The position numbers and the translations under genes are program-made. Positions 3,418 through 24,004 of a stretch of DNA of 64,000 nt are shown here, piece by piece. This DNA is from Candidatus Bathyarchaeota archaeon (lineage in GTDB: Archaea > Thermoproteota > Bathyarchaeia > Bathyarchaeales > Bathycorpusculaceae): contig CAWABA010000007.1 of NCBI GenBank assembly GCA_963780185.1, forward strand, positions 185,175 to 249,174, read 5' to 3'. Each line of letters opens with the position of its first letter. Position 1 is the stretch's first letter. Under the pieces are notes generated by a model. That model ran no database searches and had not been told where the DNA came from. It saw only the letters and a list, made by a program, of their open reading frames with translations.

Positions 3418-4650
3418 ATGGCAAAATACAAAACACTCGATGACTTTGACGTAAAAAACAAGGTCGTTCTAGTCAGAGTTGACTTTAACTCGGAAATCGA
3501 TCCCGTGACCAAGAAAGTTACAAGCGACGTGCGAATAAGGGCGCATGCAGAATCAACGCTCAAAGAACTGGCGGAGAAAGGAGCCAAAACCGTCGTTTTA
3601 GCGCATCAGGGACGCAAAGGCGACCCCGACTACACATCACTCAAAGAACACGCAGCAATCCTGGGGAAAATCCTCAAATGCCCAGTGAAATACGTCGACG
3701 ACTTATTCGGGGAAAAAGCAAAAACCGCCATCAAAAACTTGCAAAGCGGAGAAATCCTCGTCTTGGAAAACGTGCGCAGCTGGGACAAAGAAACCAAAAG
3801 CATGAGCCCCGAAGAAGCAAGCAAAACCGAACTCGTCCAAAACCTCGCGCCCCTCGCAGACCTTTTCGTTAACGACGCCTTCGCCGCAGCACACCGCGGA
3901 CACGTATCTATGGTCGGGTTCACCGCCGTGTTGCCTTCAGCCGCAGGCAGAATAATGGAGCGCGAACTCAAATCGCTTAGCCGCATCGTGGAGAAACCCG
4001 AGCACCCATGCGTCTACGTTATGGGCGGAGCCAAAGCCGATGACGCCTTAGAAATCAGCAAGTATGTGCTGGACAACGGCATCGCAGACTACATCCTCGT
4101 CGGCGGCGTCACCTCGCAGCTTTTCCTCGACGCAGACGGCATCGACCTCGGCAAGAAAACCATGGCTTTCCTCGCCAAAAAAGAACTCACCCAATTCATC
4201 CCAGGCATCAAAGCCCTCATGGCGAAATACCCCGACAAAATAGTCGTGCCCGTAGACGCAGCCTTAGATGTAGATGGCAAACGCAAAGAAATCCCCATTA
4301 GCAAGCTGCCCACGGAATACAGCATCTTTGACCTCGGAAAGAAAACCGTCGAAAAATACGCCGCCATCATCAGCAAAGCCAAATCCATCGTCGTCAGCGG
4401 ACCCATGGGCGTCTACGAAAACAAGCAGTTCAACTACGGCACCAAAGGCGTCTTCGAAGCCATCGCAAACAGCAAAGCCTTCAGCCTCGCAGGCGGCGGA
4501 AACACCATCGCAGCCATAGCGGAATACGGCTTAACCAAAAAAATAGGCTACATCAGCACCGCAGGCGGAGCACTCATCGAATTTTTGATGGGCAAAAAAC
4601 TCCCCGGCGTAACCGCACTCGAAACAGCAACAAAAACCAAAAAAATCTAA
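3418..4650 (+). CDS. pgk: Phosphoglycerate kinase
   Basis: VLVRVDFN, LENVR, NDAFAAAHR, STAGGA; follows gap. Confidence 0.96.
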   Translation: MAKYKTLDDFDVKNKVVLVRVDFNSEIDPVTKKVTSDVRIRAHAESTLKELAEKGAKTVVLAHQGRKGDPDYTSLKEHAAILGKILKCPVKYVDDLFGEKAKTAIKNLQSGEILVLENVRSWDKETKSMSPEEASKTELVQNLAPLADLFVNDAFAAAHRGHVSMVGFTAVLPSAAGRIMERELKSLSRIVEKPEHPCVYVMGGAKADDALEISKYVLDNGIADYILVGGVTSQLFLDADGIDLGKKTMAFLAKKELTQFIPGIKALMAKYPDKIVVPVDAALDVDGKRKEIPISKLPTEYSIFDLGKKTVEKYAAIISKAKSIVVSGPMGVYENKQFNYGTKGVFEAIANSKAFSLAGGGNTIAAIAEYGLTKKIGYISTAGGALIEFLMGKKLPGVTALETATKTKKI

Positions 4651-4737
4651 ATTCCTTCCCTTTTTGATTTTACAGAATTTTTTTTAAGAAAAACAAATTG
4701 GGCATCACAATATCAACAAAGAGTCAAATAACCACAT

Positions 4738-5074
4738 TAGAAATCATCCGAATGCAAGTTTAGCTGAGGCGAGAGGTCACAGGGCGAAGAAACAATAATC
4801 CGTTTTCTAAATCCTTTTTTCTGTAAGGTTTTGATGTTCATCAGTTACCGAGTTTCCATCTTTTGTCGCTTTTATCAACGTCAGCGCCATTTTTTGGTAT
4901 TTTTTTAAATCAATACATTGCAACCTTGGAAATACATCTTGTATTTTCTTGAAATCAGTGTTAATGTCATAATATGCCTTGATTCTAAGTTTATCTATTT
5001 CTTCAGCGAAGAATACGTTTCCAGCAGGAACGACAAAAACAATAATCCCATCGTTCCAGAATTTCTTTAAAACT
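4738..5074 (-). pseudogene. Start-less remnant of an unknown gene (~110 open codons)
   Basis: Open minus-strand frame VLKKFWNDGIIVFVVPAGNVFFAEEIDKL... immediately after an in-frame TGA; AT-rich island. Confidence 0.4.
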
Positions 5075-5243
5075 CACTTCTGCTAATCTGCGGTCTTTCA
5101 TATGCTTATTTAGCTCATCAGATAGCGAATTTCAGACATCTGCTCTTTCTCAGCAAAATAATTTCCTTAAATTTGTGTGGCTCTAACCAGAGGGACAAAA
5201 GCATTTATAGATTTAACGCAAATAAGAGCGTTTGATGGTTTAA

Positions 5244-5402
5244 ATGTCAAAAAAGAAACCAATCGTGCCTCCGGTTAGTGAAAGCGCACCATTCAAAGAG
5301 TTGGCAATTAAAACTGGTCTAAGAAAGCCAGACGCAAATCCGTCCAAAAGGATAGTTGTTCGAACAAAGACAAGAACGGAAATCTACGAGGAAGACCATT
5401 AG
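5244..5402 (+). CDS. Small basic hypothetical protein (52 aa)
   Basis: MSKKKPIVPPVSESAPFKELAIKTGLRK...EEDH*; TTTATA box about 35 bp upstream; below the ORF-track cutoff. Confidence 0.5.
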   Translation: MSKKKPIVPPVSESAPFKELAIKTGLRKPDANPSKRIVVRTKTRTEIYEEDH

Positions 5403-5541
5403 CGAATACCAACGAAAAACCTATTCAGCGCCCGCTACCTTTTGGATGTATTGTAACCGTGCTTACGCTCGTGAAATCAAAGGTGATAACGCTAAAACAA
5501 TCTTATATCTTAAAACAACGGAAGAATAGGCTGTCACTAAA

Positions 5542-8106
5542 GTGAAAGCTAATGCTGAATCTTACAAGCTCATAAGATATCTCTTGGTATCTTTGAGTCT
5601 CGTTTCAATGTTTTTTGCAGTGGTTTTTGCCTTCTATTTCTCAGTTCTTGCATATCCCTTCTTGATTTGCGGATTCATACTTTTATTTTGCGAAATCGTT
5701 TTTGTCTGGAAGAATCATCGATATTCTGACAAATCAAAACTAATTGCAAGCAAACTAATTCATGAGGAAATTTTGAAAGAAGCAACAGATATTTCCAATT
5801 CAACCAACCAAGTAAAGAACAGTGGAACTTACTTGATTTATTCTAATAAAGAGAATATCATTTCAAGAATAAATTATCTGCTGAAAAAAATTGAAGCCTA
5901 CTCGAATAAAAAAATGTTAGTTGAAGCTTTTGTCAACAGAACAAAAGGAGTTTTAAACGAGTGCAATGGAGTGATTCAAGCATACAATCATAATTTTGTT
6001 TCGCAAAGAAAGAAAGACTATGGCTATCTTTGGAACAAAGGCAACATTTTGCTTGACGACGAACAACAAACAGCAATCGTAACGGATGAAAAATACAACC
6101 TCGTAGTCGCAGCTGCGGGCTCTGGGAAGACTGAAGTCTTAATCACAAGAATTGCTTACCTTACCGTTAGAAAACCTGATAGTGTGAATCCAAATAGAGT
6201 CTTGGCTATCGCTTACCAAAACAAAGATGTAAAACAAATCGAAAGAAGACTTAATCAATATGGCATAATTGGAGTAAACGTAAAAACTTTCCACACCTTG
6301 GGACTTGATGTTCTACAAGAAGCCAACATAATTAACAAGATTTTAGGCCGAACTGAACGTCCTGGAATCATAAAGACGATATTCGAAAACGAATTATCTG
6401 TAAATTCGGAGTTTTATCAAAAGTTCCTAAATTATATTAAATCCATTCATGAAAACGATTTAAACAATGAACCAACAGAAGAAATTAGCTCCATTAGAAC
6501 AAGGAGTACATTTCCTTATACAGCGATAAATAATGAACCAGTTAAAAGTCATGCTGAAAAACAGATTTTCGATTTCCTGCTAACGAACAAACTGAATAAT
6601 CGCCCCATAAAAGTTGAATATGAGCATGAAATAGAAAACGTCGGAAAACCCGACTTTTACTTACCTGAATACGACCTTTACATTGAACACTGGGGTCTAA
6701 CAAAAAATGGCACAGTTCCAATATGGTTTGACCAAACAACTAAAGACTATCAAAGAAATAAAGAAAAAAAGAAACAGTGGTTTGAAGAAAATGGAAAATT
6801 GCTTGTAGAGACTTTTTCTCATGAATATGATGACGACCATCCAGAAACATTTCTACGTCTACTTACGGAGAGAATCAAAACTAAACTCCAAGAAAAAACA
6901 AAAAGCAAATTCAGTTTCGAGCTAATGACTTACAAAGAATTGGTCGAGGTTGTGCATAACTCAGATAATGATTGGATTTCTGGAAATCGCACAAAAGAAG
7001 ACCTTGGGAATTTCATAAAAAATGCTAAAACTTACAATCTTACCCCAGAACGAATTCTTCAAAAACTCAAAGAGAGAGACTGGTCACGAAAACAACAAAC
7101 ATTTGCAAAACTTGCTGTAGATGTTTATTTGAAGTATGAAGAAAAATTGAAGGAACTCCACAAGATTGATTTTGAGGATATGATAAACAAAGCAATTTAT
7201 GAACTGACCAACGACGGAGAATTATGCAAGAATAAATACGAACATATCTTGGTCGATGAATACCAGGATATTACTCATCAAACTGATAAGTTGGTTAATG
7301 CTCTCCTGAAGAATAATTCTGACTGCAAATTTTTCTGTGTTGGAGATGATTGGCAAAGCGTAATGGGTTTTGCAGGTTCAAACCTCGAATTCTTTGTGAA
7401 CTTTGAGAAGCACTATAGTAATCCTGCCATCACAAAAATATCCACGAATTACCGAAGCGTGAGGAAAATTGTTGATGCTGGAACTTGCCTTATGAAAAAC
7501 AATGAAAGCTGTCAACGTCAAAAGGTTGTTGTTTCTAAGAGTGAAGAAGGAAAATCAATAAAGATACTCTTGTCGCCCCATCATATTGAATATCAAAGGA
7601 AGTATCACGACCAAATAGCACACGACTGCATTAATCGTGTTGAAGAGTACCTAAAGAAAGGCTATGCTTGCAAAGACATTTTGATATTGAGCAGATTTAT
7701 GATGATAAATAGTAATGGAAGGCCACGTTATCATTACATAATTGAAAACCTCCTTGCTGAATCAAAAGAACGGAACATCTATTTGACTAATGAAGCGAAA
7801 GATGAACGCGGAGTTCGAGTGCTGACGGTTCACAAAGCTAAGGGCTTAGAGGCAAAAGTAGTTTTTATTCTAAACGTAATCAAGGATGTTTATGGGTTCC
7901 CAAGTGAGATTGAGGATTCTACTATTCTTGAACCCGCGAGAGAAAACTATCCTCTCCAAAGTCAGAGAGAAGAAGAACGAAGGCTGTTTTATGTAGCTTT
8001 GAGCCGTGCTAAGGAAGATTTGAATATCTATACCTGGGAACCTGCTATTAGCGAGTTTATAGATGAAATTAAAGACTATACAGTTAATGAATACTTGAGC
8101 TACTAA
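5542..8106 (+). CDS. UvrD/helicase IV-like SF1 helicase with N-terminal TM segments and an internal nuclease-like domain
   Basis: AAAGSGKT, LVDEYQD, VGDDWQS, NYRS, TVHKAKGLE, EERRLFYVALSRA; internal KSHAE..I.DFL...YE...PDFYL.EYDLYIEHWG. Confidence 0.9.
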   Translation: MKANAESYKLIRYLLVSLSLVSMFFAVVFAFYFSVLAYPFLICGFILLFCEIVFVWKNHRYSDKSKLIASKLIHEEILKEATDISNSTNQVKNSGTYLIYSNKENIISRINYLLKKIEAYSNKKMLVEAFVNRTKGVLNECNGVIQAYNHNFVSQRKKDYGYLWNKGNILLDDEQQTAIVTDEKYNLVVAAAGSGKTEVLITRIAYLTVRKPDSVNPNRVLAIAYQNKDVKQIERRLNQYGIIGVNVKTFHTLGLDVLQEANIINKILGRTERPGIIKTIFENELSVNSEFYQKFLNYIKSIHENDLNNEPTEEISSIRTRSTFPYTAINNEPVKSHAEKQIFDFLLTNKLNNRPIKVEYEHEIENVGKPDFYLPEYDLYIEHWGLTKNGTVPIWFDQTTKDYQRNKEKKKQWFEENGKLLVETFSHEYDDDHPETFLRLLTERIKTKLQEKTKSKFSFELMTYKELVEVVHNSDNDWISGNRTKEDLGNFIKNAKTYNLTPERILQKLKERDWSRKQQTFAKLAVDVYLKYEEKLKELHKIDFEDMINKAIYELTNDGELCKNKYEHILVDEYQDITHQTDKLVNALLKNNSDCKFFCVGDDWQSVMGFAGSNLEFFVNFEKHYSNPAITKISTNYRSVRKIVDAGTCLMKNNESCQRQKVVVSKSEEGKSIKILLSPHHIEYQRKYHDQIAHDCINRVEEYLKKGYACKDILILSRFMMINSNGRPRYHYIIENLLAESKERNIYLTNEAKDERGVRVLTVHKAKGLEAKVVFILNVIKDVYGFPSEIEDSTILEPARENYPLQSQREEERRLFYVALSRAKEDLNIYTWEPAISEFIDEIKDYTVNEYLSY

Positions 8107-8130
8107 CTTATGGGTATTAGGTTTGATTAC

Positions 8131-8451
8131 CTAAAAAAGAGACCTTGCCTTCACCAACAAATCAATTACTGCGGTTGTTTCGGTTTCATTGAGTCCCAGC
8201 TTTGTGGGTAACTCTTGAGTTGTCTTTTCATATAGCAAAACGAGTCTTTGGTCGCCATCGGAATCAACAACAAATTTGTTTATGTCACCTATTCTTGTAA
8301 CTTGATGGTTTCCCAACATATTTCTTGCTCTTGCTAAAAAGTTGATGATAGTCTGAGACTCGTCTTTACTAAAATTTAACTTGAAGTGCTGTCCGAAAAA
8401 GAAATCTTTGCCACAGATTTCAATCAGTCTTCGCTCATAACTGAACTGCAC
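8131..8451 (-). CDS. Hypothetical protein
   Basis: 106-aa ORF in the AT-rich island, no recognisable motif. Confidence 0.45.
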   Translation of the reverse strand: MQFSYERRLIEICGKDFFFGQHFKLNFSKDESQTIINFLARARNMLGNHQVTRIGDINKFVVDSDGDQRLVLLYEKTTQELPTKLGLNETETTAVIDLLVKARSLF

Positions 8452-8983
8452 TACGAAATTGTCAGTTTCACCTATAATTTTTGTATATTTAACATAATAG
8501 TTAGAATTTGTTTTTCTACTGTAAGTTCCGTGGGTCCTGCCTCTGACTTTGTTATTTTTTGAATAGAATTTCGGAGACTGGACCTTTAGGGGATATCGTC
8601 TATTTCGATTACCGCATAATCGGTTCCTGTGATACTTCTTACGAATGCTTCAGTCCTTTTTCTATCTCTGGCTGCCTCGTTATTCGAACAATATGCGGGG
8701 TTGTCTCGTCGAGGTCCCAACTATTGCGCCTTTGTAACTCTGTGAGCGTTTAGACTTTTATGCTGTGTGATTTCAAAATCCATATACTCGATTCCAACCG
8801 CAATTTCTGTTTGCGAGGTGTAATTTTTCTCATATTTTTACCCCTTATAGCATTTGTTAGATAGTTAGCAGGGGGGTAATTTTTACTTCGTTTCTTACTC
8901 CTCGTGATATTACTATTCTTCACTTGTCTACCATACCATCTATTTAGCACCCAAACGTTAGGTAGGTCGTAAACGTCTGTGTA

Positions 8984-15316: not shown

Positions 15317-15943
15317 ATGCGTGTCATCATCTTTTCTTGGGAGTATCCGCCTAGGGTCGTAGGTAAACTCGCAGAGTATGTGAAGGCTTTGTCAAGTCTT
15401 CTTGCCAGCAATGACGTCGAAGTAAACGTTGTAACTTACGATGACTCCGTAACGGGTTCCGCTAAGGACTCAACAGGCGTGCAAACTGTTCGAGTGTCAA
15501 ATCCTGTTCGAACCCACATTGGAGTTCTAACCTGGGTTCTAACGCTAAACCAAGAAGTTGAAAGAGCAGCAGCCAACCTTTACTATCAAGCTAAAAAACA
15601 AATTGACCTAATTGACGTTTTCGACTGGCATTTTATCCCAGCCGCAGTCACCATAAAAAACGGGTTAGGCGTACCGTTTGTTTATTCCGTCGAAAGCTTA
15701 GAGGACCATCGATCCCAAGGCTTAAGCACACCCTACAACATGGCTATTAAAAGTATTGAGTGGCTGGGTTTTTATGAAGCGCAAAAAATCAGCGTTAAAT
15801 CTGAGTGGATGCGAGACGAAATCGTCAGAATCTACAAGGTTCCTCAAGAAAAAATCGCTGTAGTTCCAACCATCTCAAGTTCGTGGATAAAAGAGATTCT
15901 TAAACTCTACAGTAACGTCTCCGGAGGCTTAAATGCCGAATGA
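15317..15943 (+). CDS. GT4 N-terminal-domain-only protein
   Basis: SWEYPPRVVG, DWH; lacks the C-terminal EPFG domain. Confidence 0.8.
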   Translation: MRVIIFSWEYPPRVVGKLAEYVKALSSLLASNDVEVNVVTYDDSVTGSAKDSTGVQTVRVSNPVRTHIGVLTWVLTLNQEVERAAANLYYQAKKQIDLIDVFDWHFIPAAVTIKNGLGVPFVYSVESLEDHRSQGLSTPYNMAIKSIEWLGFYEAQKISVKSEWMRDEIVRIYKVPQEKIAVVPTISSSWIKEILKLYSNVSGGLNAE

Positions 15944-17145
15944 AAAACGATTTAACAGTTATGATGCTTAGCTGGGAGTTCCCGCCACGAGTTATTGGAG
16001 GAATTTCACCTCATGTCTTCTTTTTGTCAAAGAGTTTGGCGAAGCAGGGCGTAAAAGTTTACGTTGTAACATGTGATTTTCCTGATGCACCAACGCATGA
16101 AGTGATTAACGGGGTAGAGGTTTACCGCATTGACTCCTACAAGAACCCAGCGCCTGACTTTGCAACATGGGTTTATCTGATGAATCTTAACATGCAAAAG
16201 GAAACAGCAGCGTTGACCAGAAAGATCGGGAACAAGATCGATTTGCTGCATTGTCACGATTGGCTAGTAGCTAACGCTGGAATAGGGCTCAAACATGTCT
16301 TTCGTAAACCTCTTTTGGTGACTATGCATTCAACTGAAATAGGCAGAAGAGACGGGTTACATACAGACACCGAGAAAATGATTCATGAAACTGAAGCATG
16401 GCTCAGCTATGAAGCGTGGAAGGTTGTTTGCTGCAGTGACTACATGATTTCACACGTGAAATGGGCTTTCGGATTACCCAATGACAAGTTAGTCATGGTT
16501 CCTAACGGAGTCAACACCAAGGATTACAACGCTTCTCAAGAAGACTTGACGGATTTCAGGAGCAAATTCGCGCTGCCGGAAGAAAAAATAGTTCTTTTCG
16601 TTGGCAGATTGGTATATGAAAAAGGCATCCACATATTGATTAACGCTGTCCCCAAAGTTTTGGACAAAGTTAACGCTAAATTCATCATTGTCGGCAGCGG
16701 CTATATGAAAGAGCAGCTTCTGAACATCGTTCGCAGCATGAAATTGGAGCACAAAGTCCTCTTCGAAGGTTTCCTTGACGAACAGACCCTGCTTAAACTT
16801 CAACAATGCGCTGACGTATCCGTTGTGCCTTCACTGTTTGAGCCGTTTGGAATCGTCGCATTAGAGGCTATGGCAGCAAAAAGCCCCGTTGTCGCGTCTG
16901 ACACGGGTGGCTTATCCGAAATCATAGAGCATGACGTAACAGGAGTAAAAGTTTACCCGAACAATCCTGATTCGTTGGCGTGGGGAATAAACAAAGTTCT
17001 GCTTGACGACGGCTACCGGTGGCATATTAGGGAAAACGCCTACAAAAAAGTATTGGACAGGTATGATTGGGAAAAGATCGCCCAACAAACTAAACGCATT
17101 TACGAGGGCGTTTTAGGCGAGTACTCCAACAGTTTCTGGGCTTAA
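15940..17145 (+). CDS. GT4 glycosyltransferase; its 3' end is the integration target
   Basis: SWEFPP, HCHDW, VGRLVYEKG, FEPFGIVALEAM. Confidence 0.93.
   Translation: MKNDLTVMMLSWEFPPRVIGGISPHVFFLSKSLAKQGVKVYVVTCDFPDAPTHEVINGVEVYRIDSYKNPAPDFATWVYLMNLNMQKETAALTRKIGNKIDLLHCHDWLVANAGIGLKHVFRKPLLVTMHSTEIGRRDGLHTDTEKMIHETEAWLSYEAWKVVCCSDYMISHVKWAFGLPNDKLVMVPNGVNTKDYNASQEDLTDFRSKFALPEEKIVLFVGRLVYEKGIHILINAVPKVLDKVNAKFIIVGSGYMKEQLLNIVRSMKLEHKVLFEGFLDEQTLLKLQQCADVSVVPSLFEPFGIVALEAMAAKSPVVASDTGGLSEIIEHDVTGVKVYPNNPDSLAWGINKVLLDDGYRWHIRENAYKKVLDRYDWEKIAQQTKRIYEGVLGEYSNSFWA
17115..17141 (+). repeat. attL
   Basis: AGGCGAGTACTCCAACAGTTTCTGGGC, 26/27 identical to 21226-21252. Confidence 0.95.
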
Positions 17146-18106
17146 AACACCAGATACTCGCCTGATAGAGCAAATACCCAAAATAGCCAAAGTTCTTGAA
17201 AACTTAGAAGGACTTGGCAAAGAAAAAACTACGAGAAAAACCTACAGGAAACTTCTCTTAAGATTAGCAAGCAAAGTAAACTTAAACGAACCTGAACTTG
17301 TCAACCTTGCCATAGCCCGATTCAAGAAATTTGACCGCAAAACAGGAAGAGACACAAACAAAGAAGTAACCAACGGGTACAAAGACAAACTAATATTTGC
17401 CTACAAAACATACGTCGAATATTACAACATCCAAAACTGGAAACAGCCATATTATAAAGCAGAAGAAAAAGGCATACAACCACCAAACGACGAAAGAGTA
17501 AAATTCTTAATAGCAACAGCCAAAGAACCCCTTAACATAAAAATTATGATAATCGGAGAAACAGGGTTAAGACCCAAAGAAGTCACAGGAACAGACGGAC
17601 TCCAAGTAAACGACATACACAAAGACACAAAAACAATGGTTGCAAGAAGCTTGAAAGGATGCAACCCAAGACCACCAATGCCATTGAGCGATGAACTGTT
17701 AACGGCACTCACCAACTACATAACAAAACACAAGCTAAAAGGCACAGACCAACTGTTCATAGGAGACTCTGAAACGCTATCAAACCACTTTTACGACCAC
17801 AAAAAACTATTAGCAAAAAGACTAAACGACCCAACAATCGAACAAACACGCCTCTACGACATCAGACACTATTACATAACCAAGAAAGTTAGAAAACTAC
17901 AAAACACCGAAATAGTCAGACAAATAACAGGACACAAAAGACTAAACACGCTACAAAGATACATCCATATAGCCATCAACCAAACAGGAGAATGGATTAT
18001 CGAGCAAACGAATGACCGAGCAAGAGCTAAAGAACTCGCAACACAGGGATTTGAATATCAACTGACTACACCAGACAATTACATGCAGTTTAGAAAACCA
18101 AAATAG
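17117..18106 (+). CDS. int: Tyrosine integrase, int(C) fragment without a native start
   Basis: Frame open from attL (TAG at 17114) to 18106; GLRPKE (R), SLKG (K), YDIRHYY, ITGHKRLNTLQRY (H, Y). The track ORF at 17546 uses an internal Met. Confidence 0.9.
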   Translation, partial: ASTPTVSGLKTPDTRLIEQIPKIAKVLENLEGLGKEKTTRKTYRKLLLRLASKVNLNEPELVNLAIARFKKFDRKTGRDTNKEVTNGYKDKLIFAYKTYVEYYNIQNWKQPYYKAEEKGIQPPNDERVKFLIATAKEPLNIKIMIIGETGLRPKEVTGTDGLQVNDIHKDTKTMVARSLKGCNPRPPMPLSDELLTALTNYITKHKLKGTDQLFIGDSETLSNHFYDHKKLLAKRLNDPTIEQTRLYDIRHYYITKKVRKLQNTEIVRQITGHKRLNTLQRYIHIAINQTGEWIIEQTNDRARAKELATQGFEYQLTTPDNYMQFRKPK

Positions 18107-18230
18107 CCTTATTTTTTTTCCGTTCCGCTCCGCTTGCGCTCCGCTGCACTCCCCAAAAAATATTCAGCGATTTAAAAGATTATTCAAACATGAAAGCCGA
18201 CCATCTTCAAAACCGCATGACCTATACAGG

Positions 18231-18563
18231 CTAACTATCATCTATGTAACCCTTATCTTCCGAAGACAATTGTTTAGGAACTACAAATCCAGCAGGTGCA
18301 ACAAAACGTTTACAAATGAACCTTAAGCGACCCTTTACATCATAGGTGAAACAAGCACCAGCATTCAGTAAATAGTCAAACCTCTTACAATGTAATTTAT
18401 CATATGGGCAATCAGTATTTGAAAACTGACTCTTAACCATAGAGGAATTAGACGAATATTGCTTAACTTCAACAAAATTAGAGTCATCAACAACATTATG
18501 TTTTTCGGCAATATTTGAATTAGATTTAACACGAGAAAGCCGACGTTTACCCATAAACATCAA
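18231..18563 (-). CDS. Element hypothetical protein with Cys residues
   Basis: Follows the Rep C-terminal ORF by 2 bp; AAGGTTGA upstream. Confidence 0.55.
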   Translation of the reverse strand: MMFMGKRRLSRVKSNSNIAEKHNVVDDSNFVEVKQYSSNSSMVKSQFSNTDCPYDKLHCKRFDYLLNAGACFTYDVKGRLRFICKRFVAPAGFVVPKQLSSEDKGYIDDS

Positions 18564-18565
18564 CC

Positions 18566-18871
18566 TTAAACGAACTCATACCGAGAAATATAGGGCTTAC
18601 GCCTATCACTATCAGCAACAACTTGCCACACCTCAACACCACCCTCAACCGCAGGCATCCAACTATCTCTGACATAATCAACCGCATACTTAGCCAACGC
18701 AAAAACCTTACTACCCAAATATTTAGCCTCAACTAACTCATGCTGACAAAGCGGACAAAGCATTTTCCGAATCTCATAAGTGACCTTCAATTTCCGATAA
18801 CTACAATTACCAAACCAAGTAACAATCACATGACGATTTCTGACACTATTAACTGATAAAACCTGACTCAT
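18566..18871 (-). CDS. Putative C-terminal module of the HUH Rep (Zn-ribbon)
   Basis: HVIVTWFGNCSYRKLK...CPLC; same frame as 18872..19741, ATG directly after its TGA. Confidence 0.7.
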   Translation of the reverse strand: MSQVLSVNSVRNRHVIVTWFGNCSYRKLKVTYEIRKMLCPLCQHELVEAKYLGSKVFALAKYAVDYVRDSWMPAVEGGVEVWQVVADSDRRKPYISRYEFV

Positions 18872-19741
18872 TCAGAAACCCCCCACCTTAACAGCGCAGT
18901 GATTTAGCTGATACCAAGCCGTGCCAAAAACCGTAGCACGTTCAGCCTCACATTTAATAATATAATGATTTTTCGTGTAAGAACCCCTAACTCGCGCCTC
19001 GAAACCATCACAACCAGCACAAACAAACTCATTACCGTGCTCCTCAATCAAGCGACCACCACGAGAACGAAAACGCCTTAAAGTTTTGGCACAAGACCTA
19101 CACTTACCATAACCACCAAGAATAAATGCTATACTGTGTATATGCGGACTCCAATACCATCCAAACAAAACGCCTTTTTCAATCGACTCTTGATAATTCG
19201 CATACCTAAAACCATGAAAAATGAGACAACCGCCTACAACACCAACCTCAGACAAAATTCTCTTTACCTTAACTCGAAACTTATCGTTATGAAATTCAGC
19301 TAAACCCAAATCCGAATATGGCGGACTAACAATAATATGCTGAGGAGCACCAAACCGCTTAGATGCAACCTCTATTCGCTGAGCAATGTGGTCAGCCTCA
19401 CGCTTAGCATAACCCGAAAAACAGCAAACAGGACACAGTGGATTATTACATGAACGATGAATCTTACGCACAAAATTCTCGCCAACATGGGAAACACCAT
19501 CCAAATTAGACTGACTATGAAGCTCAACACGATTACAAATCATTAATTTTTGAAAAGCACCACAATAAGAATTAGTTTGAACCCCATGACCAGCTAACCA
19601 CCAAAAACCATGATGAGCGCTAACATCCTCTGGAGCCTCACAATCACCAAAAGACTTAGCATAGTCATAGTAAAGATTTTCAACTTCTTTCTCGGATAAT
19701 CCCCTAACAGTTGGAAAAACCGAAGCCAACTTTTCAGACAT
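18872..19741 (-). CDS. rep: HUH-superfamily rolling-circle replication initiator (Rep)
   Basis: Cys-rich N-terminus (CNNPLCPVC), motif 1-like HIIVSP, motif 2 WSPHIH, motif 3-like WYQLNH. Confidence 0.78.
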   Translation of the reverse strand: MSEKLASVFPTVRGLSEKEVENLYYDYAKSFGDCEAPEDVSAHHGFWWLAGHGVQTNSYCGAFQKLMICNRVELHSQSNLDGVSHVGENFVRKIHRSCNNPLCPVCCFSGYAKREADHIAQRIEVASKRFGAPQHIIVSPPYSDLGLAEFHNDKFRVKVKRILSEVGVVGGCLIFHGFRYANYQESIEKGVLFGWYWSPHIHSIAFILGGYGKCRSCAKTLRRFRSRGGRLIEEHGNEFVCAGCDGFEARVRGSYTKNHYIIKCEAERATVFGTAWYQLNHCAVKVGGF

Positions 19742-19997
19742 AAAGCTTTCCGTCCTTCTTTAAAATCGCGTAAATACTAACCTTAACGGAAGTAACCCAA
19801 GAAGGCAACCAACAACACCTAAGACCATCCTGACAACAGACACCAGACGCCAAATTAATGTAAAAATTACGGCACGGCAAACCAAAATAAGGACAGTTTG
19901 GAGCGCCACGCAAACGAACACACAAATCAAAACACGCTATCATAGAAAGCGAAACTTTTTTTCCAGCAGCGGACAAATCAACCTTTTGAACCAACAC
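19734..19997 (-). CDS. Element Cys-rich hypothetical protein
   Basis: Overlaps the rep start by 8 bp; GAAGGTG upstream. Confidence 0.5.
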   Translation of the reverse strand: MLVQKVDLSAAGKKVSLSMIACFDLCVRLRGAPNCPYFGLPCRNFYINLASGVCCQDGLRCCWLPSWVTSVKVSIYAILKKDGKLYV

Positions 19998-20339
19998 ACC
20001 ACACCTTCAAGCAAACAAGTTGCCGCTAAAAACTATATGTAAGGAGCTCTCATGAAAAGCGCAAAACCCAAAATCCATTGGTAACAATCAACAACACTTT
20101 ACATAAAAATTTACCAAATACTATATAAAGAAAATAAAAAACTGGTGCTTTCACTTTCAAATCAAAATTAGCATTTTTATCAGCAGTAATTGACAAATTG
20201 CCAACGATTAACAACATATTACTTGAAATCTCATCGAAAAAAAAATAGCGCCAAAAACAAATATACACTAACAACAATTAACGCTATTCAATAAATAACC
20301 AACATCATTCAATCAAAAAATCAAAATACCGAAGAAACC

Positions 20340-20790
20340 CCCAAGAAACCACATTTCTTAAACTCCCTGTTAAAAGGAGACACAAGAACCAACAGGAGAA
20401 GAACCATTTCCCCCAGAAGGTTCTCTCCCGTAGTTTCTATAGCCCCCTCAAGAACTGGACACATAAAAAAATGCAAGCATTTTTTATGAACCTAAACCCC
20501 CACACCAGAGACTCCTTTAAACCTTGACTCACTTACCTACTTTCCGTGTTCACCCGAACCCCACACGGCAATTTTTCAGTGAAAAATTGAGTAAAGCATT
20601 CCCAGGGGAATATCAATAAGCACATGGGAACACACAGGCGTCACCTGTGCTTCAGAAAGGCTTAACCCCTTCGGAAAACGAATGTCCCCAAGAAATTGAA
20701 TTTCTTGGCGTTTTCCCGCCCAGGGGAAGCCTTTCTTCGTGACATGCAATAGCCAATGCCGTAAATCGGCAATTAGGCTATGCCGTCATT
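20340..20790. other. Hairpin-rich non-coding region: candidate replication origin (dso/sso) or structured RNA
   Basis: Stems at 20395-20428, 20462-20488, 20544-20568, 20569-20589, 20633-20649, 20654-20736 (nested) and 20749-20781. Confidence 0.65.
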
Positions 20791-21134
20791 AAAACGCCAG
20801 CAACAACTCCACAGAGGAAAGACAGCCATGCAATAGGAACTTAGCCGACCAACGATTAACAGCGCAGAGCCGAGTCAAATAGAACTTAAGCCAAAAAATA
20901 AGCGTACAGCTCACCGCAAACGCAAATAGCCCGCCAATCGCACAACGCCAATTTTTCAGCAAAAACAGAAACCAACACAATCTTTACTTTCAAAAAGAAG
21001 ATTATTCAAAGAAAGATTAACAGAAAGAAAAAACAGATTAGACCAATAACCTAACAGCAAATTTACTAAGCAGTTAGCAACCTAAAAAACAAACTGTAGA
21101 AATGAAGAACACTTTAACCATTAAACAATTTAGA

Positions 21135-21150
21135 AATAACACTTATAACT
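21135..21150 (+). promoter_or_regulatory. BRE/TATA promoter for int(N)
   Basis: AAATAACACTTATAAC about 38 bp upstream of ATG 21186. Confidence 0.55.
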
Positions 21151-21185
21151 AGCCACATTCACAAGATACCCACAGATGAAGTAAA

Positions 21186-21263
21186 ATGACAGAAACAGCA
21201 ACACCCAATAAATTACTAAGGCTTAAGGCGAGTACTCCAACAGCTTCTGGGCATGAAGCCTAA
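21186..21263 (+). CDS. int: Integrase int(N) fragment
   Basis: MTETATPNKLLRLK then ASTPT read through attR in the same frame as int(C) at attL. Confidence 0.8.
   Translation: MTETATPNKLLRLKASTPTASGHEA
21226..21252 (+). repeat. attR, carrying the displaced original 3' end of the GT4 gene
   Basis: GGC GAG TAC TCC AAC AGC TTC TGG GCA TGA = GEYSNSFWA*, the same peptide as the gene end at attL. Confidence 0.95.
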
Positions 21264-21266
21264 ACG

Positions 21267-22625
21267 CTACTTGCCTATTACCCTTACGTTTTCAACTTGA
21301 ATCCACGGAGAAATCAGTTGCCCCATCTGCCGCTCGTTGCTGCCGACTAAACTCACGTTTTTGAGCACTTCATAAATGTTGCCTGCCAACATGACGCCTC
21401 TGCTGCAGTGGGTTATTTCGCCTTTCGTAATCTTCCAAGCTGGGGTCGCAACCACTGAGAACTCGCCACTGACTGGGTTACTGCTATGCGCACCCTGCAA
21501 GTAGTAGACTATTAGGCCGTCGTCAACTTCTCTTAGCATTTCATCTGCTGTTTTGTCTCCTGGCAAAATGTGAAAGTTTGTAGTGTCGATGCTGGGCGTT
21601 GACAAATATCCTGCGCGTCCTGCGTTTCCCGTGCTTTTTTTGCCTTCTTTTTTTGCTGAGTAGCTGTCATATAAGAAGCTGCGCAAAACGCCTTTCTCGA
21701 TGACTGCTGTTTTCTGGTGAGGCACACCCTCGCCGTCGAAGGCCCAAGTGCGAAGACCGCCAGGGAACAAGCCGTCATCGTAAACTGTTAGTTTTTCAGA
21801 AGCCACTTTCTCGCCGATTTTCCCCTTAAAGGCAGACTGATTTCTCTGCACGCTGTCGGCTCTGACTGCGTTAATTAGGGTGTAAGCAAAAAGGTCCTGC
21901 AGTGCAAACTGGGTTAGAATTAATGTGGTGCTTTTGGTTTCAACCGATTTGGTTTTTAATGCTGAAACAGCCAGTTTCGCCGCTTCTTTGCCAACCCAAA
22001 CTGGGTCAACCTCGTAACTTCTTGACGCATTGAATTCGAAGCAAACAGGCGTAACCGAGTTGCCTTCCTTTGCTAAGGTTGCTATGCTGCACTCGACAAC
22101 TGTGCCTTTGTCAAAACCCGAGATTCCGTTTGAGTTGGCGACGGCGTTGGAAATGTAAGCGCTGCCGATCCCGCCCTCGATTGGGAACACCCTCTTGTCA
22201 ACTTGTCCAGCGGCGTCCAGCATGGTTGCTGCGACTTTTACGAGTTCTTCAGACTCAAGTTCCACGATCCTTTCATCAAACGTTTTTTCGAGTGATGCGT
22301 AGGGTTTGTTTTCTGGTAGCCCCTTCCAGTCTGGGTCAGGCTTGCTTGCTTTCGCCGCGCTCAAAGCCCTAGCGATTACGCCCTCAACTGCTTTTGTGTC
22401 GTCGATTACGTTTGTGTAGCCGAAACCCATCGCTTTGTCGGCGACTACGCGGATGCCTAAGCCTCGGTCAATTATCCTGTTTGTCTTGCTGATTTGCCCC
22501 AGTTCTATGCCGATGTTTGTCGCTTGCCCCTCGTAAACGTAAGCCTCGGCTTCTGAAGCTCCCTTTTTCAAGGCTAAACTTACCGCGTTTTCAGCCAAAT
22601 TCACCATTACGTCTTTTTTAAGCAC
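21267..22625 (-). CDS. pmbA: TldE/PmbA family protein
   Basis: [26 protein letters not shown]; probable GTG start overlapping the tldD stop. Confidence 0.9.
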
Positions 22626-24004
22626 TGCCACCGACAACAACCTCCTTAATGCTAATGTGGGGTCCTCCGTCACAAATGAAAGCAATCTGACCTTTACCGC
22701 ATCTGCCTGGATCGATGAGAAAATCTTTCCCGACGCCATCGACTTTGTTTAATGTTTCAAGCGTGTTTCCGCTTATTGAGGCGTCACGTACTGGCCCGCC
22801 TACTTCGCCGTTGACTATTTCGTAGCCTTCTTGGATTCCGACTTGGAAGGTGCCGTCAAGGTTAGCTTGTCCGCCCCTGAAACTCTTGAAGTAGAAGCCC
22901 TGCTTTACGTTTTCGACTAATTCTTCAAAGGAATGATCTCTGGGCTCCATGTAAGTGCAGCGCATTCGGATGATTGGTTCCACCCGAAAATCTTCGGCTC
23001 TCGCGTTGCCTGTGGGTTTAGCGTTAAATGTTTGGGCGGTTTCACGGTTATGCATTAAGCCTGCGACAACGCCGTTTTTTATAAGCAGTGTTTTCTGGGT
23101 TTGAACCCCTTCATCGTCGTATTTGAAGGCGCCAAAAGAACCTTCTATTGTGCCGTCATCATAGAACGTGACTAGATCAGACCCGATTTTCCTACCTAAG
23201 TTGCTTGCTAAGACGCCGCCTGAAAGAGCCAAGTCAGCTTCAGCCAGGTGACCAAACGCTTCATGAACAAAAACTCCAACAACGTTCGGACCCAAAACAA
23301 CGGGGAACCTTCCTCCCTTCAAAGATTTGGCGGCGAGCTGGTCAATCGCGCGTTTAGCTACTTTTTGGCCTAACTCTTCAGGAGGCTGCTCGTCGAACAC
23401 TTCGTAGCCTGCAGTGGAGCCTAGCTTCTTCTCGACTGGAAGTGAAGACGCCCCCTTCTTGGGCTGAACCCGCGATTCTTGCCCAAACATACAACTTGTC
23501 CTGCTCAATGCTTGAGCCGTCACTGTTAACAAAATAGCTGGTGCCCATCAAATCCAAATAATCAATCGTGAAACTCTTTATCCGTTTATCATAGCGCAAG
23601 CCCGTCTTGTTTACGGTCATGGCTGTTTTGATTTTGTCCTCCATTGAAATATCCGCTGGATTCTTCTTCGGCTTAGACCTGACGCGGTCAGTAACCACTG
23701 GTGCCTCGGCAATCTTAATCGGCTTCTTCAGATGCAAGCTCGCCATCTTCGCCATTCTGCAAGCATCAGAAACTGCGCCCTCCAAAATGGCAGGGTCCAA
23801 AGAGCCGACGGACGCAAATCCCCACGCCCCATTCACAAGTACGCGCAGTGCTACTCCGCTTTCAATTCCCTGTTTTGCCGCTTCCACCCGCTCCTCCTTA
23901 ATAGTTAGCATTGTTTTGTCCAGTTTCTGTGCGCGGGCTTCGGCGTATTGTGCTCCGAACTTTTGAGTGGCGATGTTGTTGATTTTGGTCAGAAGGTCTT
24001 TCAA
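22618..24004 (-). CDS. tldD: TldD metalloprotease (frameshift near 23425, likely a sequencing error)
   Basis: [23 protein letters not shown]; two ORFs join. Confidence 0.9.

Follow-up and report, generated by a model that had tools for sequence, protein, structure and literature searches.

The window analysed here is a 64,000-nucleotide stretch of contig CAWABA010000007.1 from a Candidatus Bathyarchaeota assembly (GCA_963780185.1). Within it, a 4.1-kb unit lies between two host genes, one for a GT4-family glycosyltransferase and one for a TldD/PmbA-family metallopeptidase. The unit is bounded by two copies of a direct repeat and encodes a tyrosine recombinase in two parts, Int(N) and Int(C), a Rep protein likewise divided into RepN and RepC, two cysteine-rich open reading frames (ORFs), and a non-coding block (Table 1). 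Probably the unit is an integrative replicon of small size, from a family specific to Bathyarchaeia.

Table 1. Features of the 4.1-kb unit and its host flanks (positions are those of the window)
Feature	Position	Strand	Basis or remark
Target gene, GT4-family glycosyltransferase	15940..17145	+	Pfam Glycos_transf_1 2e-45, Glyco_transf_4 2.1e-26
attL, left repeat copy, core 17116-17132	17112..17146	.	Gives the last codons and stop of the glycosyltransferase
Int(C), 321 codons of tyrosine recombinase	17141..18106	+	PF00589 3.4e-12; frame open from the att site
orf110, Cys-rich, downstream of Rep	18231..18563	-	No family match; weakly conserved
RepC, Rep C-terminal domain as a separate 101-aa ORF (WFGxCSYRKLK...CPxC)	18566..18871	-	Homologous to the C-terminal ~90 residues of fused relatives
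RepN, 289-aa HUH-type initiator core	18872..19741	-	HUH and Tyr motifs, AF2 model, SNJ1 RepA profile match
orf87, Cys-rich, overlaps the Rep start, doubtful gene	19734..19997	-	No family match
Non-coding block, candidate origin region	19998..21185	.	Hairpin cluster 20560-20800; near-unchanged block 20910-20959
Int(N), ATG and first 22 codons of integrase	21186..21251	+	Frame runs into attR
attR, right repeat copy, core 21227-21243	21223..21257	.	Displaced original 3' end of the glycosyltransferase gene
TldD/PmbA-family metallopeptidase, right host flank	21267..22739	-	PF19289 2e-73

Insertion into a glycosyltransferase gene and a split integrase

The two repeat copies are 35 nt long and identical at 31 of 35 positions, with a start-to-start distance of 4111 bp. 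Their longest identical run, an exact 17-nt core, does not occur a third time in the 2.75-Mb genome. Eight genomes of the same genus carry the site in its empty state: the 3' end of the glycosyltransferase gene faces the 3' end of the TldD/PmbA gene across a gap of 11–60 nt, and the glycosyltransferase orthologues at these sites are 81–89% identical to the target. The empty sites align to both junctions, matching attL and attR each in its outer half. Since these eight genomes keep the site empty, the block is an insertion into the glycosyltransferase 3' end, and the 4.1-kb unit entered the last ~30 nt of that gene, its attB, by site-specific recombination. An integrative, att-bounded unit of 4111 bp had been proposed in the first-pass annotation of this DNA, and the repeats and empty sites bear the proposal out. 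Read from the translation, attL and attR encode the same C-terminal peptide of nine residues (...GEYSNSFWA-stop) with synonymous differences; the att arm of the element restores the gene end with synonymous codons, and the host glycosyltransferase protein is therefore unchanged. The TldD/PmbA protein, used as a query, was found in 21 of the 31 related genomes.

Integration divides the integrase gene. Int(C) scores 46.9 bits against PF00589 (cutoff 27.1), matches the integrase family phrog_216 at 3.6e-12 and the XerA-like model NF040815 at 5.4e-18, the latter under that model's cutoff, and the R...HxxR...Y residues are visible in its translation. Its frame contains no ATG, GTG or TTG between 17117 and 17545, the first possible start being codon 136. 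Int(N) and Int(C) are in register at the 4111-bp offset, and the computed circular form joins them into 343 codons (344 with the stop) free of internal stops. The attP site thus lies inside the integrase gene, an SSV-type arrangement, so that in the integrated state the ATG with 22 codons stands at the right end and the other 321 codons at the left, and the circle alone carries the integrase gene in full length. SSV1-type elements target a tRNA gene and have attP within int, and a split int is their normal integrated state.

The same layout recurs among relatives. Exact repeats of 17–36 nt bound units of 3210–8089 bp in 35 of the 53 loci that carry Rep with a convergent integrase (these 35 include the present element, and some duplicate one element), with one copy at the int 5' edge and the other upstream of Rep. 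The first int start codon of the circular form lies beyond the att site, at the opposite end, in 24 of 30 att-bounded units tested. Of 29 loci examined with ARAGORN, four have an att copy within a tRNA gene (two Pro, one Thr and one Gly), and no tRNA was called in the others.

Three further observations concern the site itself. Occupied sites, in this element and in its nearest relatives L006, L032 and L033, read ...TC(C/A)AACAG... in the att core, with an Asn codon where all eight empty sites (L116–L123) have AAG or AAA for Lys. This codon lies within 17116–17141 and 21227–21252, and the element either needs or imposes its own version of the core. In four other members of the genus (L155–L158, in genomes G003, G004, G008 and G014), 1.8–3.9 kb of unrelated DNA devoid of Rep or Int homologues separates the TldD and glycosyltransferase 3' ends, so the insertion spot is variable beyond this element. 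Paralogous glycosyltransferase genes, 30–35% identical to the target, lie directly upstream of it (15317–15943) and at 39–986, which places the target in a glycosylation gene cluster.

A Rep protein in two pieces

RepN begins with Cys/His clusters, followed by motif I (HIIVSPP), the HUH motif H200-I-H202, a CxxC...CxxC insert and the tyrosine motif Y277-Q-L-N-H281. Residues invariant in its alignment are C60, C69, H75, C98, C103, C106, H135, D144, H176, H200, C214, C217, C241, C244, R268, T274, Y277 and H281. The PHxH motif was compared across 45 sequences: H200 never varies, and H202 is kept in at least 90% of them. Y277, equivalent to Y244 in a second family alignment, is the one invariant tyrosine. 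An AlphaFold2 (AF2) model of RepN (pLDDT 82.8) puts the HUH motif on a strand at 194–207 and Y277 on a helix at 271–280.

More distant Rep relatives are ~340 aa long and run on into a RepC-like domain. In 106 of the 111 related loci RepN and RepC lie next to each other; of 107 loci, 94 have them as one protein and 11 as two, all but one of the split Reps falling within this element's clade. In the ten other split Reps the second ORF is in another frame than the first, and in four of these the stop codon of one overlaps the start codon of the next (coupled ATGA-type junctions); a same-frame TGA followed directly by ATG occurs in this element only. Given the different frames in the ten relatives, the split is a genuine two-gene arrangement. 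Read-through of the TGA between RepN and RepC was considered and rejected on the same ground.

For RepN, RepC, orf110 and orf87, searches of Pfam, PHROGs and NCBIfam at E ≤ 1 yielded no meaningful match, and neither RepN nor a 41-sequence profile matched PDB sequences at E ≤ 10. The kinship of Rep emerged in profile–profile comparisons, for which profiles were built from 28 SNJ1 RepA family members, 11 IS91 Y2 transposases and 8 Rep_1 proteins (pC194 and seven from Clostridia-class genomes; a homologue search with pC194 Rep returned only copies 99–100% identical, unusable as a profile). Against the family of SNJ1 RepA (gp11-12 of that virus, by annotation its rolling-circle replication initiation protein), hhalign gave a probability of 98.3% (E 1.5e-14, score 113, 196 columns). 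The aligned motifs were CxxxxCPxC-W, HxxVSPP (motif I), PHFH and Y-x-L-(N/S)-H, with Y277 on the invariant tyrosine of the SNJ1 family. The single SNJ1 RepA sequence gave 66% (E 5.6e-5). None of the 32 proteins from the SNJ1 RepA search is among those listed in the Bathyarchaeal Rep searches with HMMER, and since the HMMER lists share no protein, we treat the Bathyarchaeal Reps as a family sister to that of SNJ1 RepA and distinct from it.

The IS91 Y2_Tnp profile followed at 90.9% (E 1.1e-6, score 55.4, 259 columns; 40 column shuffles gave a mean of 15.8 and a maximum of 26.7), in an alignment that spans the zinc-binding N-terminal motif and the C-terminal ...YG...CPxC part. The Rep_1 profile scored 33.8 (P 0.0013) with all motifs collinear, 100 column shuffles giving a mean of 13.1 and a maximum of 18.9 and the reversed alignment 15.1; the single pC194 Rep aligned only by its Cys motif (42%). 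The PHxH of RepN aligns with the PHFH of SNJ1 RepA, IS91 and Rep_1 alike. Individual Pfam matches were below threshold: Rep_1 (PF01446) reached 12.7 bits (E 0.085; gathering threshold 33.2 bits) in 2 of 41 relatives and was not matched by RepN, Zn_Tnp_IS91 was matched weakly by 1 of 41 family members (E 0.13), and neither PF04986 (Y2_Tnp) nor PF25227 (Rep-Arvir/DUF7845) was matched at E ≤ 1 by RepN or the 41 relatives. SNJ1 RepA itself stays below threshold everywhere in Pfam, with only Zn_Tnp_IS91 (E 0.25) and DUF5523 (E 0.12) appearing. The ESM-Atlas neighbours of one homologue (P0074) include clusters bearing Rep_1 and Zn_Tnp_IS91, with scores of 0.95–0.96.

Structural comparison gave weak matches. 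For a model of a fused homologue (pLDDT 89.7), the top eight of eight VIA matches were HUH Rep nuclease domains, at weak Z of 4.3–5.5, among them SIRV1 ORF119, Vientovirus Rep, pMV158 RepB, MVM NS1, nanovirus M-Rep and AAV5 Rep. The RepN model likewise had SIRV1 ORF119 on top (Z 5.9), with unrelated ferredoxin-like folds close behind. The HUH assignment of the first-pass annotation stands on the SNJ1 RepA match, the conserved HUH and Tyr motifs, and these fold matches, weak as their Z values are. We conclude that Rep is, as judged by its sequence, a putative HUH enzyme of the SNJ1-RepA/IS91/Rep_1 branch, and at the level of homology the element encodes a predicted two-piece endonuclease of that branch, RepN plus RepC.

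The Rep family, its gene content and its strand skew

RepN has 486 relatives at E ≤ 1e-3 in a collection clustered at 90%; at 50% identity the representative clusters number 528, and a Rep of the family occurs in at least 496 metagenome stretches. Among genomes, 31 loci were found, 30 of them in Bathyarchaeia or Bathyarchaeota metagenome-assembled genomes (MAGs), with a near-identical flank in one, in agreement with the initial assignment of this DNA to a probable Bathyarchaeon. The remaining locus (L014, on the 16.5-kb contig C19 of G031) belongs to a MAG labelled Christensenellaceae and is probably a binning error, because the other 30 genome loci are all from Bathyarchaeia. The integrase lies convergent downstream of Rep in 53 of the 111 loci.

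The nearest elements are L006, in a MAG, and L032 and L033, on metagenome contigs, with Reps 89–90% identical to this one. L006 lies between the same two host genes; the L032 and L033 contigs show the TldD flank and end before the other side. Between Rep and Int, L033 carries a 938-aa Eco57I/MmeI-type restriction–modification (RM) enzyme of type IIG (PF07669 4.4e-50; 4490–7306, minus strand) and a DUF3800 protein gene (7578–8336, minus strand), so the backbone ferries defence-type cargo. Compared with L033, the ratio of nonsynonymous to synonymous substitutions (dN/dS) is 0.11 for RepN, 0.25 for RepC and 0.14 for Int; the three genes are under purifying selection. Synonymous divergence (dS) is 0.30–0.61 for the element genes and 1.15 for the flanking TldD gene, and this lower value suggests that the element reached the two hosts after their split.

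Two groups of relatives deserve separate mention. The complete genome of Candidatus Bathyarchaeum tardum M17C-01 (CP122380.1), labelled as an enrichment-cultured species, holds at 4572–8673 a 4,072-bp member (L016); it has a winged helix-turn-helix (wHTH) gene, a fused Rep and an Int, and its ends are marked by a 30-nt repeat located at a tRNA-Thr gene. Four whole metagenome contigs of 3.8–5.7 kb (L068, L074, L084 and L110) end ~70–170 nt outside both att copies; such ends are expected if assembly breaks at the junction of occupied, empty and circular forms, and are no proof of excision.

The non-coding block spans ~1.2 kb without a conserved ORF. Folded as single-stranded DNA, the interval 20560–20800 reaches -55.2 kcal/mol against -28.6 ± 3.6 in shuffles (z -7.5), none of 200 shuffles being as good, and the structured block described in the first-pass annotation is real in this sense. 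In an alignment with L006, L032 and L033, the 50 nt at 20910–20959 are almost unchanged in the 88%-identical relative, and the three elements have three GGTAGGGGAATnTGTCCCC iterons at the place of this element's hairpins. Rfam gave no matches at E ≤ 1 on 17000–21400. The k-mers enriched across the family's flanks correspond to integrase coding sequence and the Int(N)/att arm.

Among the small ORFs, orf110 has tblastn matches in 3 of the 111 loci and belongs to an ORF cluster of five loci; orf87 has none in the 111, the 90%-identical L033 included. A ~190-aa wHTH gene stands divergent from Rep in 44 relatives, the closest ones included. Searches of Pfam, PHROGs and NCBIfam revealed no capsid, ATPase or conjugation family in the unit, as had been noted before. 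The earlier inventory of integrase, Rep, small ORFs and a structured block holds with two amendments: the ORF at 18566–18871, counted among the small ORFs, is the Rep C-terminal domain, and the integrase is split, not whole. The word "minimal", also used then, is true only in relative terms, as family units range over 3210–8089 bp and this one is without the wHTH gene of the 44 relatives.

Base composition sets the unit apart from its surroundings. Its plus strand has A.402, C.251, G.141 and T.207, against ~.27/.23/.23/.27 in the flanks, and the Rep-sense strand is G+T-rich across the whole unit, the oppositely oriented int included. The bias is family-wide: on the Rep-sense strand, G exceeds C in 53 of 53 loci over the Rep region and in 52 over the Int region, and T exceeds A in 52 and 53, respectively. 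Genomes of single-stranded DNA tend to be T-rich. The skew may be a trace of repeated single-stranded exposure of the Rep-sense strand, and, being a simple signature that spans whole elements, it could be used to find such replicons.

Mode of life, rival explanations and known systems

Judged from its genes and layout, the element would behave as a cryptic integrative plasmid without recognisable virion or transfer genes. Site-specific recombination into the glycosyltransferase 3' end integrated it and split int at attP, and excision would yield a circle with a full-length int, replicating by a rolling-circle route. On that circle, an origin within the hairpin-rich non-coding block would be the place where Rep nicks one strand, with Tyr277 binding the 5' end of the nicked strand, and the displacement and subsequent copying of the Rep-sense strand would fall to host enzymes. 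If this strand is exposed repeatedly in single-stranded form, its G+T richness regardless of gene direction would be accounted for. Homology, skew and architecture together suggest rolling-circle replication; of the traits of a rolling-circle episome (a circle, a single-stranded intermediate, an origin), the strand skew and the hairpin block are the sole observations in line. We further reason that continued selection on int implies free copies at least at times, which would need a replication function.

A more sweeping picture is possible, and we put it forward tentatively: Bathyarchaeia may hold lineage-specific, very abundant self-replicating mini-replicons of 3–8 kb with a genome-wide mutational signature of single-stranded DNA and a full-length int on the free circle only, the first plasmid-like replicons of the class, with a two-subunit HUH initiator in this subclade.

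Several results weigh against an active replicon. No circular form was found: exact terminal overlaps of 15–300 nt were present in 0 of the 111 loci. Three sequencing runs from one study (best word share 0.14) gave nine contig pieces of 84–374 nt and no joints, too little to judge excision or coverage. A scan of 2.9 million viral contigs of IMG/VR with the family alignment returned 100 pattern matches, none of them confirmed as relatives. No nick site or family-wide conserved non-coding motif emerged from shared k-mers in 84–86 dereplicated flanks, and the wHTH gene is absent from this element (0 of 44 queries below E 0.01). Foldseek against the PDB gave nothing at E ≤ 1e-3 for the RepN and fused-homologue models, and the fold matches obtained elsewhere are weak (Z < 8). 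The strand skew could arise from causes other than exposure of single-stranded DNA. Because the Rep family scores higher against IS91 than against Rep_1, a transposase-like activity is conceivable, and because the wHTH gene is lacking, Rep is split and int is not full-length when integrated, this copy may be immobile. The search of the assembly for CRISPR arrays yielded a single one (contig C13, 3044–4705; 22 repeats of 38 nt and 21 spacers), which was compared with the 64-kb window and the family loci; the spacer match that had been suggested as a check was not obtained at E ≤ 0.05, the one hit being 17/18 at E 0.08.

One rival explanation is that the unit is a fossil, a trapped remnant copied only passively with the chromosome, with Rep and Int inactive for this copy. 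That the integrated Int(C) lacks a start codon before codon 136, that Rep lies in two ORFs and the wHTH gene of 44 relatives is missing, and that the unit is a single copy with no other att core in the genome and no circular form found would all fit. We nevertheless regard a fossil as unlikely, since all three genes (RepN, RepC and Int) have open frames and show purifying selection in comparison with L033 (dN/dS 0.11–0.25), and the lower dS of the element than of the host gene (0.30–0.61 versus 1.15) argues for transfer after the host split. The two-ORF Rep is moreover clade-wide with coupled ATGA-type junctions and not a private lesion, and a split int is usual for integrated SSV-type elements. 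Quite improbable in our view is a rolling-circle transposon, in which the HUH protein would be an IS91/ISCR-like transposase moving the unit or part of it and the integrase a passenger or second route. The IS91 profile does score above Rep_1 (55.4 at 90.9% versus 33.8), with the N-terminal zinc motif and C-terminal part included, and one of 41 members has a weak Zn_Tnp_IS91 match (E 0.13). Yet att repeats of the integrase type mark the exact edges of the insertion in this element and likewise in 35 of 53 relatives; the 2.75-Mb genome has one Rep copy, whereas IS91 relatives have 10 and 4 copies in two searched genomes; a single invariant Tyr takes the place of a Y2 pair, with no PF04986 match at E ≤ 1; and the SNJ1 initiator family gives a much better match (E 1.5e-14). 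The first-pass annotation had set clustering of Rep with IS91/IS200-type transposases or the lack of an HUH fold, along with an absence of any excised form or relatives, against its reading. Rep is indeed related to IS91 transposases (90.9%), which bears out part of the first half of that objection; as such kinship is reportedly already in print for the SNJ1 initiator, to go by the title of a 2018 paper, and the relatives are so numerous, the integrative-replicon reading is upheld.

Small size, the family-wide G+T excess on one strand across opposed genes and the lack of matched transfer or virion genes would also suit a satellite or capsid-less single-stranded DNA element, a circle packaged or transferred by a helper virus or vesicles whose skew stems from a life as single-stranded DNA. 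We give this a low probability: relatives are absent from the 2.9 million IMG/VR contigs, the 21 host CRISPR spacers gave no match at E ≤ 0.05, larger relatives carry plasmid-like cargo (the RM enzyme and DUF3800) and not virion genes, and no link ties the family to any helper. Least credible of all, and very improbable, is a mobilisation relaxase, an HUH protein that nicks oriT for transfer and has no role in replication. HUH relaxases share the fold, and MobM is among the weak fold matches of the RepN model (Z 3.9); the closest profile match, however, is a replication initiator, neither the unit nor the recurring gene clusters of relatives contain conjugation genes, and relaxase-dependent conjugation is, to our knowledge, not established in archaea.

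If the element is the integrative replicon that we favour, it matters for a host class, Bathyarchaeia, of archaea that are hard to grow. The family supplies a candidate origin and initiator together with an integrase of known att sites, parts for a shuttle or integration vector, and the copy in Candidatus Bathyarchaeum tardum would make the idea testable and could yield an origin-plus-integration cassette. With ~530 clusters at 50% identity and no Pfam model, the Reps add a large branch to the SNJ1-RepA/IS91/Rep_1 HUH group, which bears on the kinship of rolling-circle plasmids, viruses and transposons.

The closest known counterpart is RepA of SNJ1, a haloarchaeal virus of the Simuloviridae, which has the same motif order (CxxxxCPxC-W, HxxVSPP, PHFH, Y-x-L-(N/S)-H) and, like the Bathyarchaeal Rep, reaches no Pfam family threshold. 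SNJ1 RepA, however, is ~480 aa long and comes from halophiles and a non-integrated 16-kb virus with capsid genes, whereas the Bathyarchaeal Rep has ~340 aa, with a C-terminal CPxC domain and a CxxC...CxxC insert as additional features, and resides in integrase-bearing units of 3–8 kb. With IS91 Y2 transposases (PF04986 and PF14319) it has a remote homology that includes the zinc-binding N-terminus and the C-terminal region, but it differs in having one invariant Tyr and not two, a single copy, an integrase with att repeats, and no Pfam match at E ≤ 1. Plasmids of the pC194/pUB110 type (Rep_1, PF01446) are likewise small replicons with an HUH Rep of the same branch and collinear motifs, yet they are bacterial and have no integrase, and the Bathyarchaeal Rep stays under the Rep_1 threshold. 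As in SSV1-type partitioning integrases, attP here lies inside a tyrosine-recombinase gene that is split on integration; in contrast to SSV1, 22 codons are split off and the target is a protein gene and not a tRNA gene, the class being set by the att position.

According to Krupovic et al. (2019, PMC6563490), thaumarchaeal integrated elements occupy 3'-distal parts of protein genes in 14 of 68 cases, with empty sites verified, and one cryptic element, NitAQ6f-E2, is reported to have an SNJ1-like rolling-circle initiator. NitAQ6f-E2, likened here by its description and not by sequence, is a single element in another phylum, whereas the Bathyarchaeal family counts hundreds and is confined to Bathyarchaeia among the genomes found. 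A further paper (PMC13107129) describes, for the temperate pleolipovirus SNJ2, rolling-circle replication and an excision and circularisation that re-establish a working arrangement of genes in which the integrase gene takes part, and assigns Rep-Arvir (PF25227) to a Rep_trans/TBP-like fold and not to HUH; SNJ2, being a virus, has structural genes, and the fold matches of the Bathyarchaeal Rep are HUH domains and not TBP-like. No plasmid or rolling-circle element of Bathyarchaeia was found in the literature searched, including the accessible portion of the virome paper PMC10541130, whose supplements may list some, and the Bathyarchaeal family is apparently undescribed. Archaeal cryptic integrated elements, protein-gene 3' targets, SSV-type integrases and excision-restored gene arrangements are thus an already known kind, to which this locus, beyond its first-pass annotation, adds a split SSV-type int, a two-piece Rep and kinship of that Rep with SNJ1 RepA and IS91.

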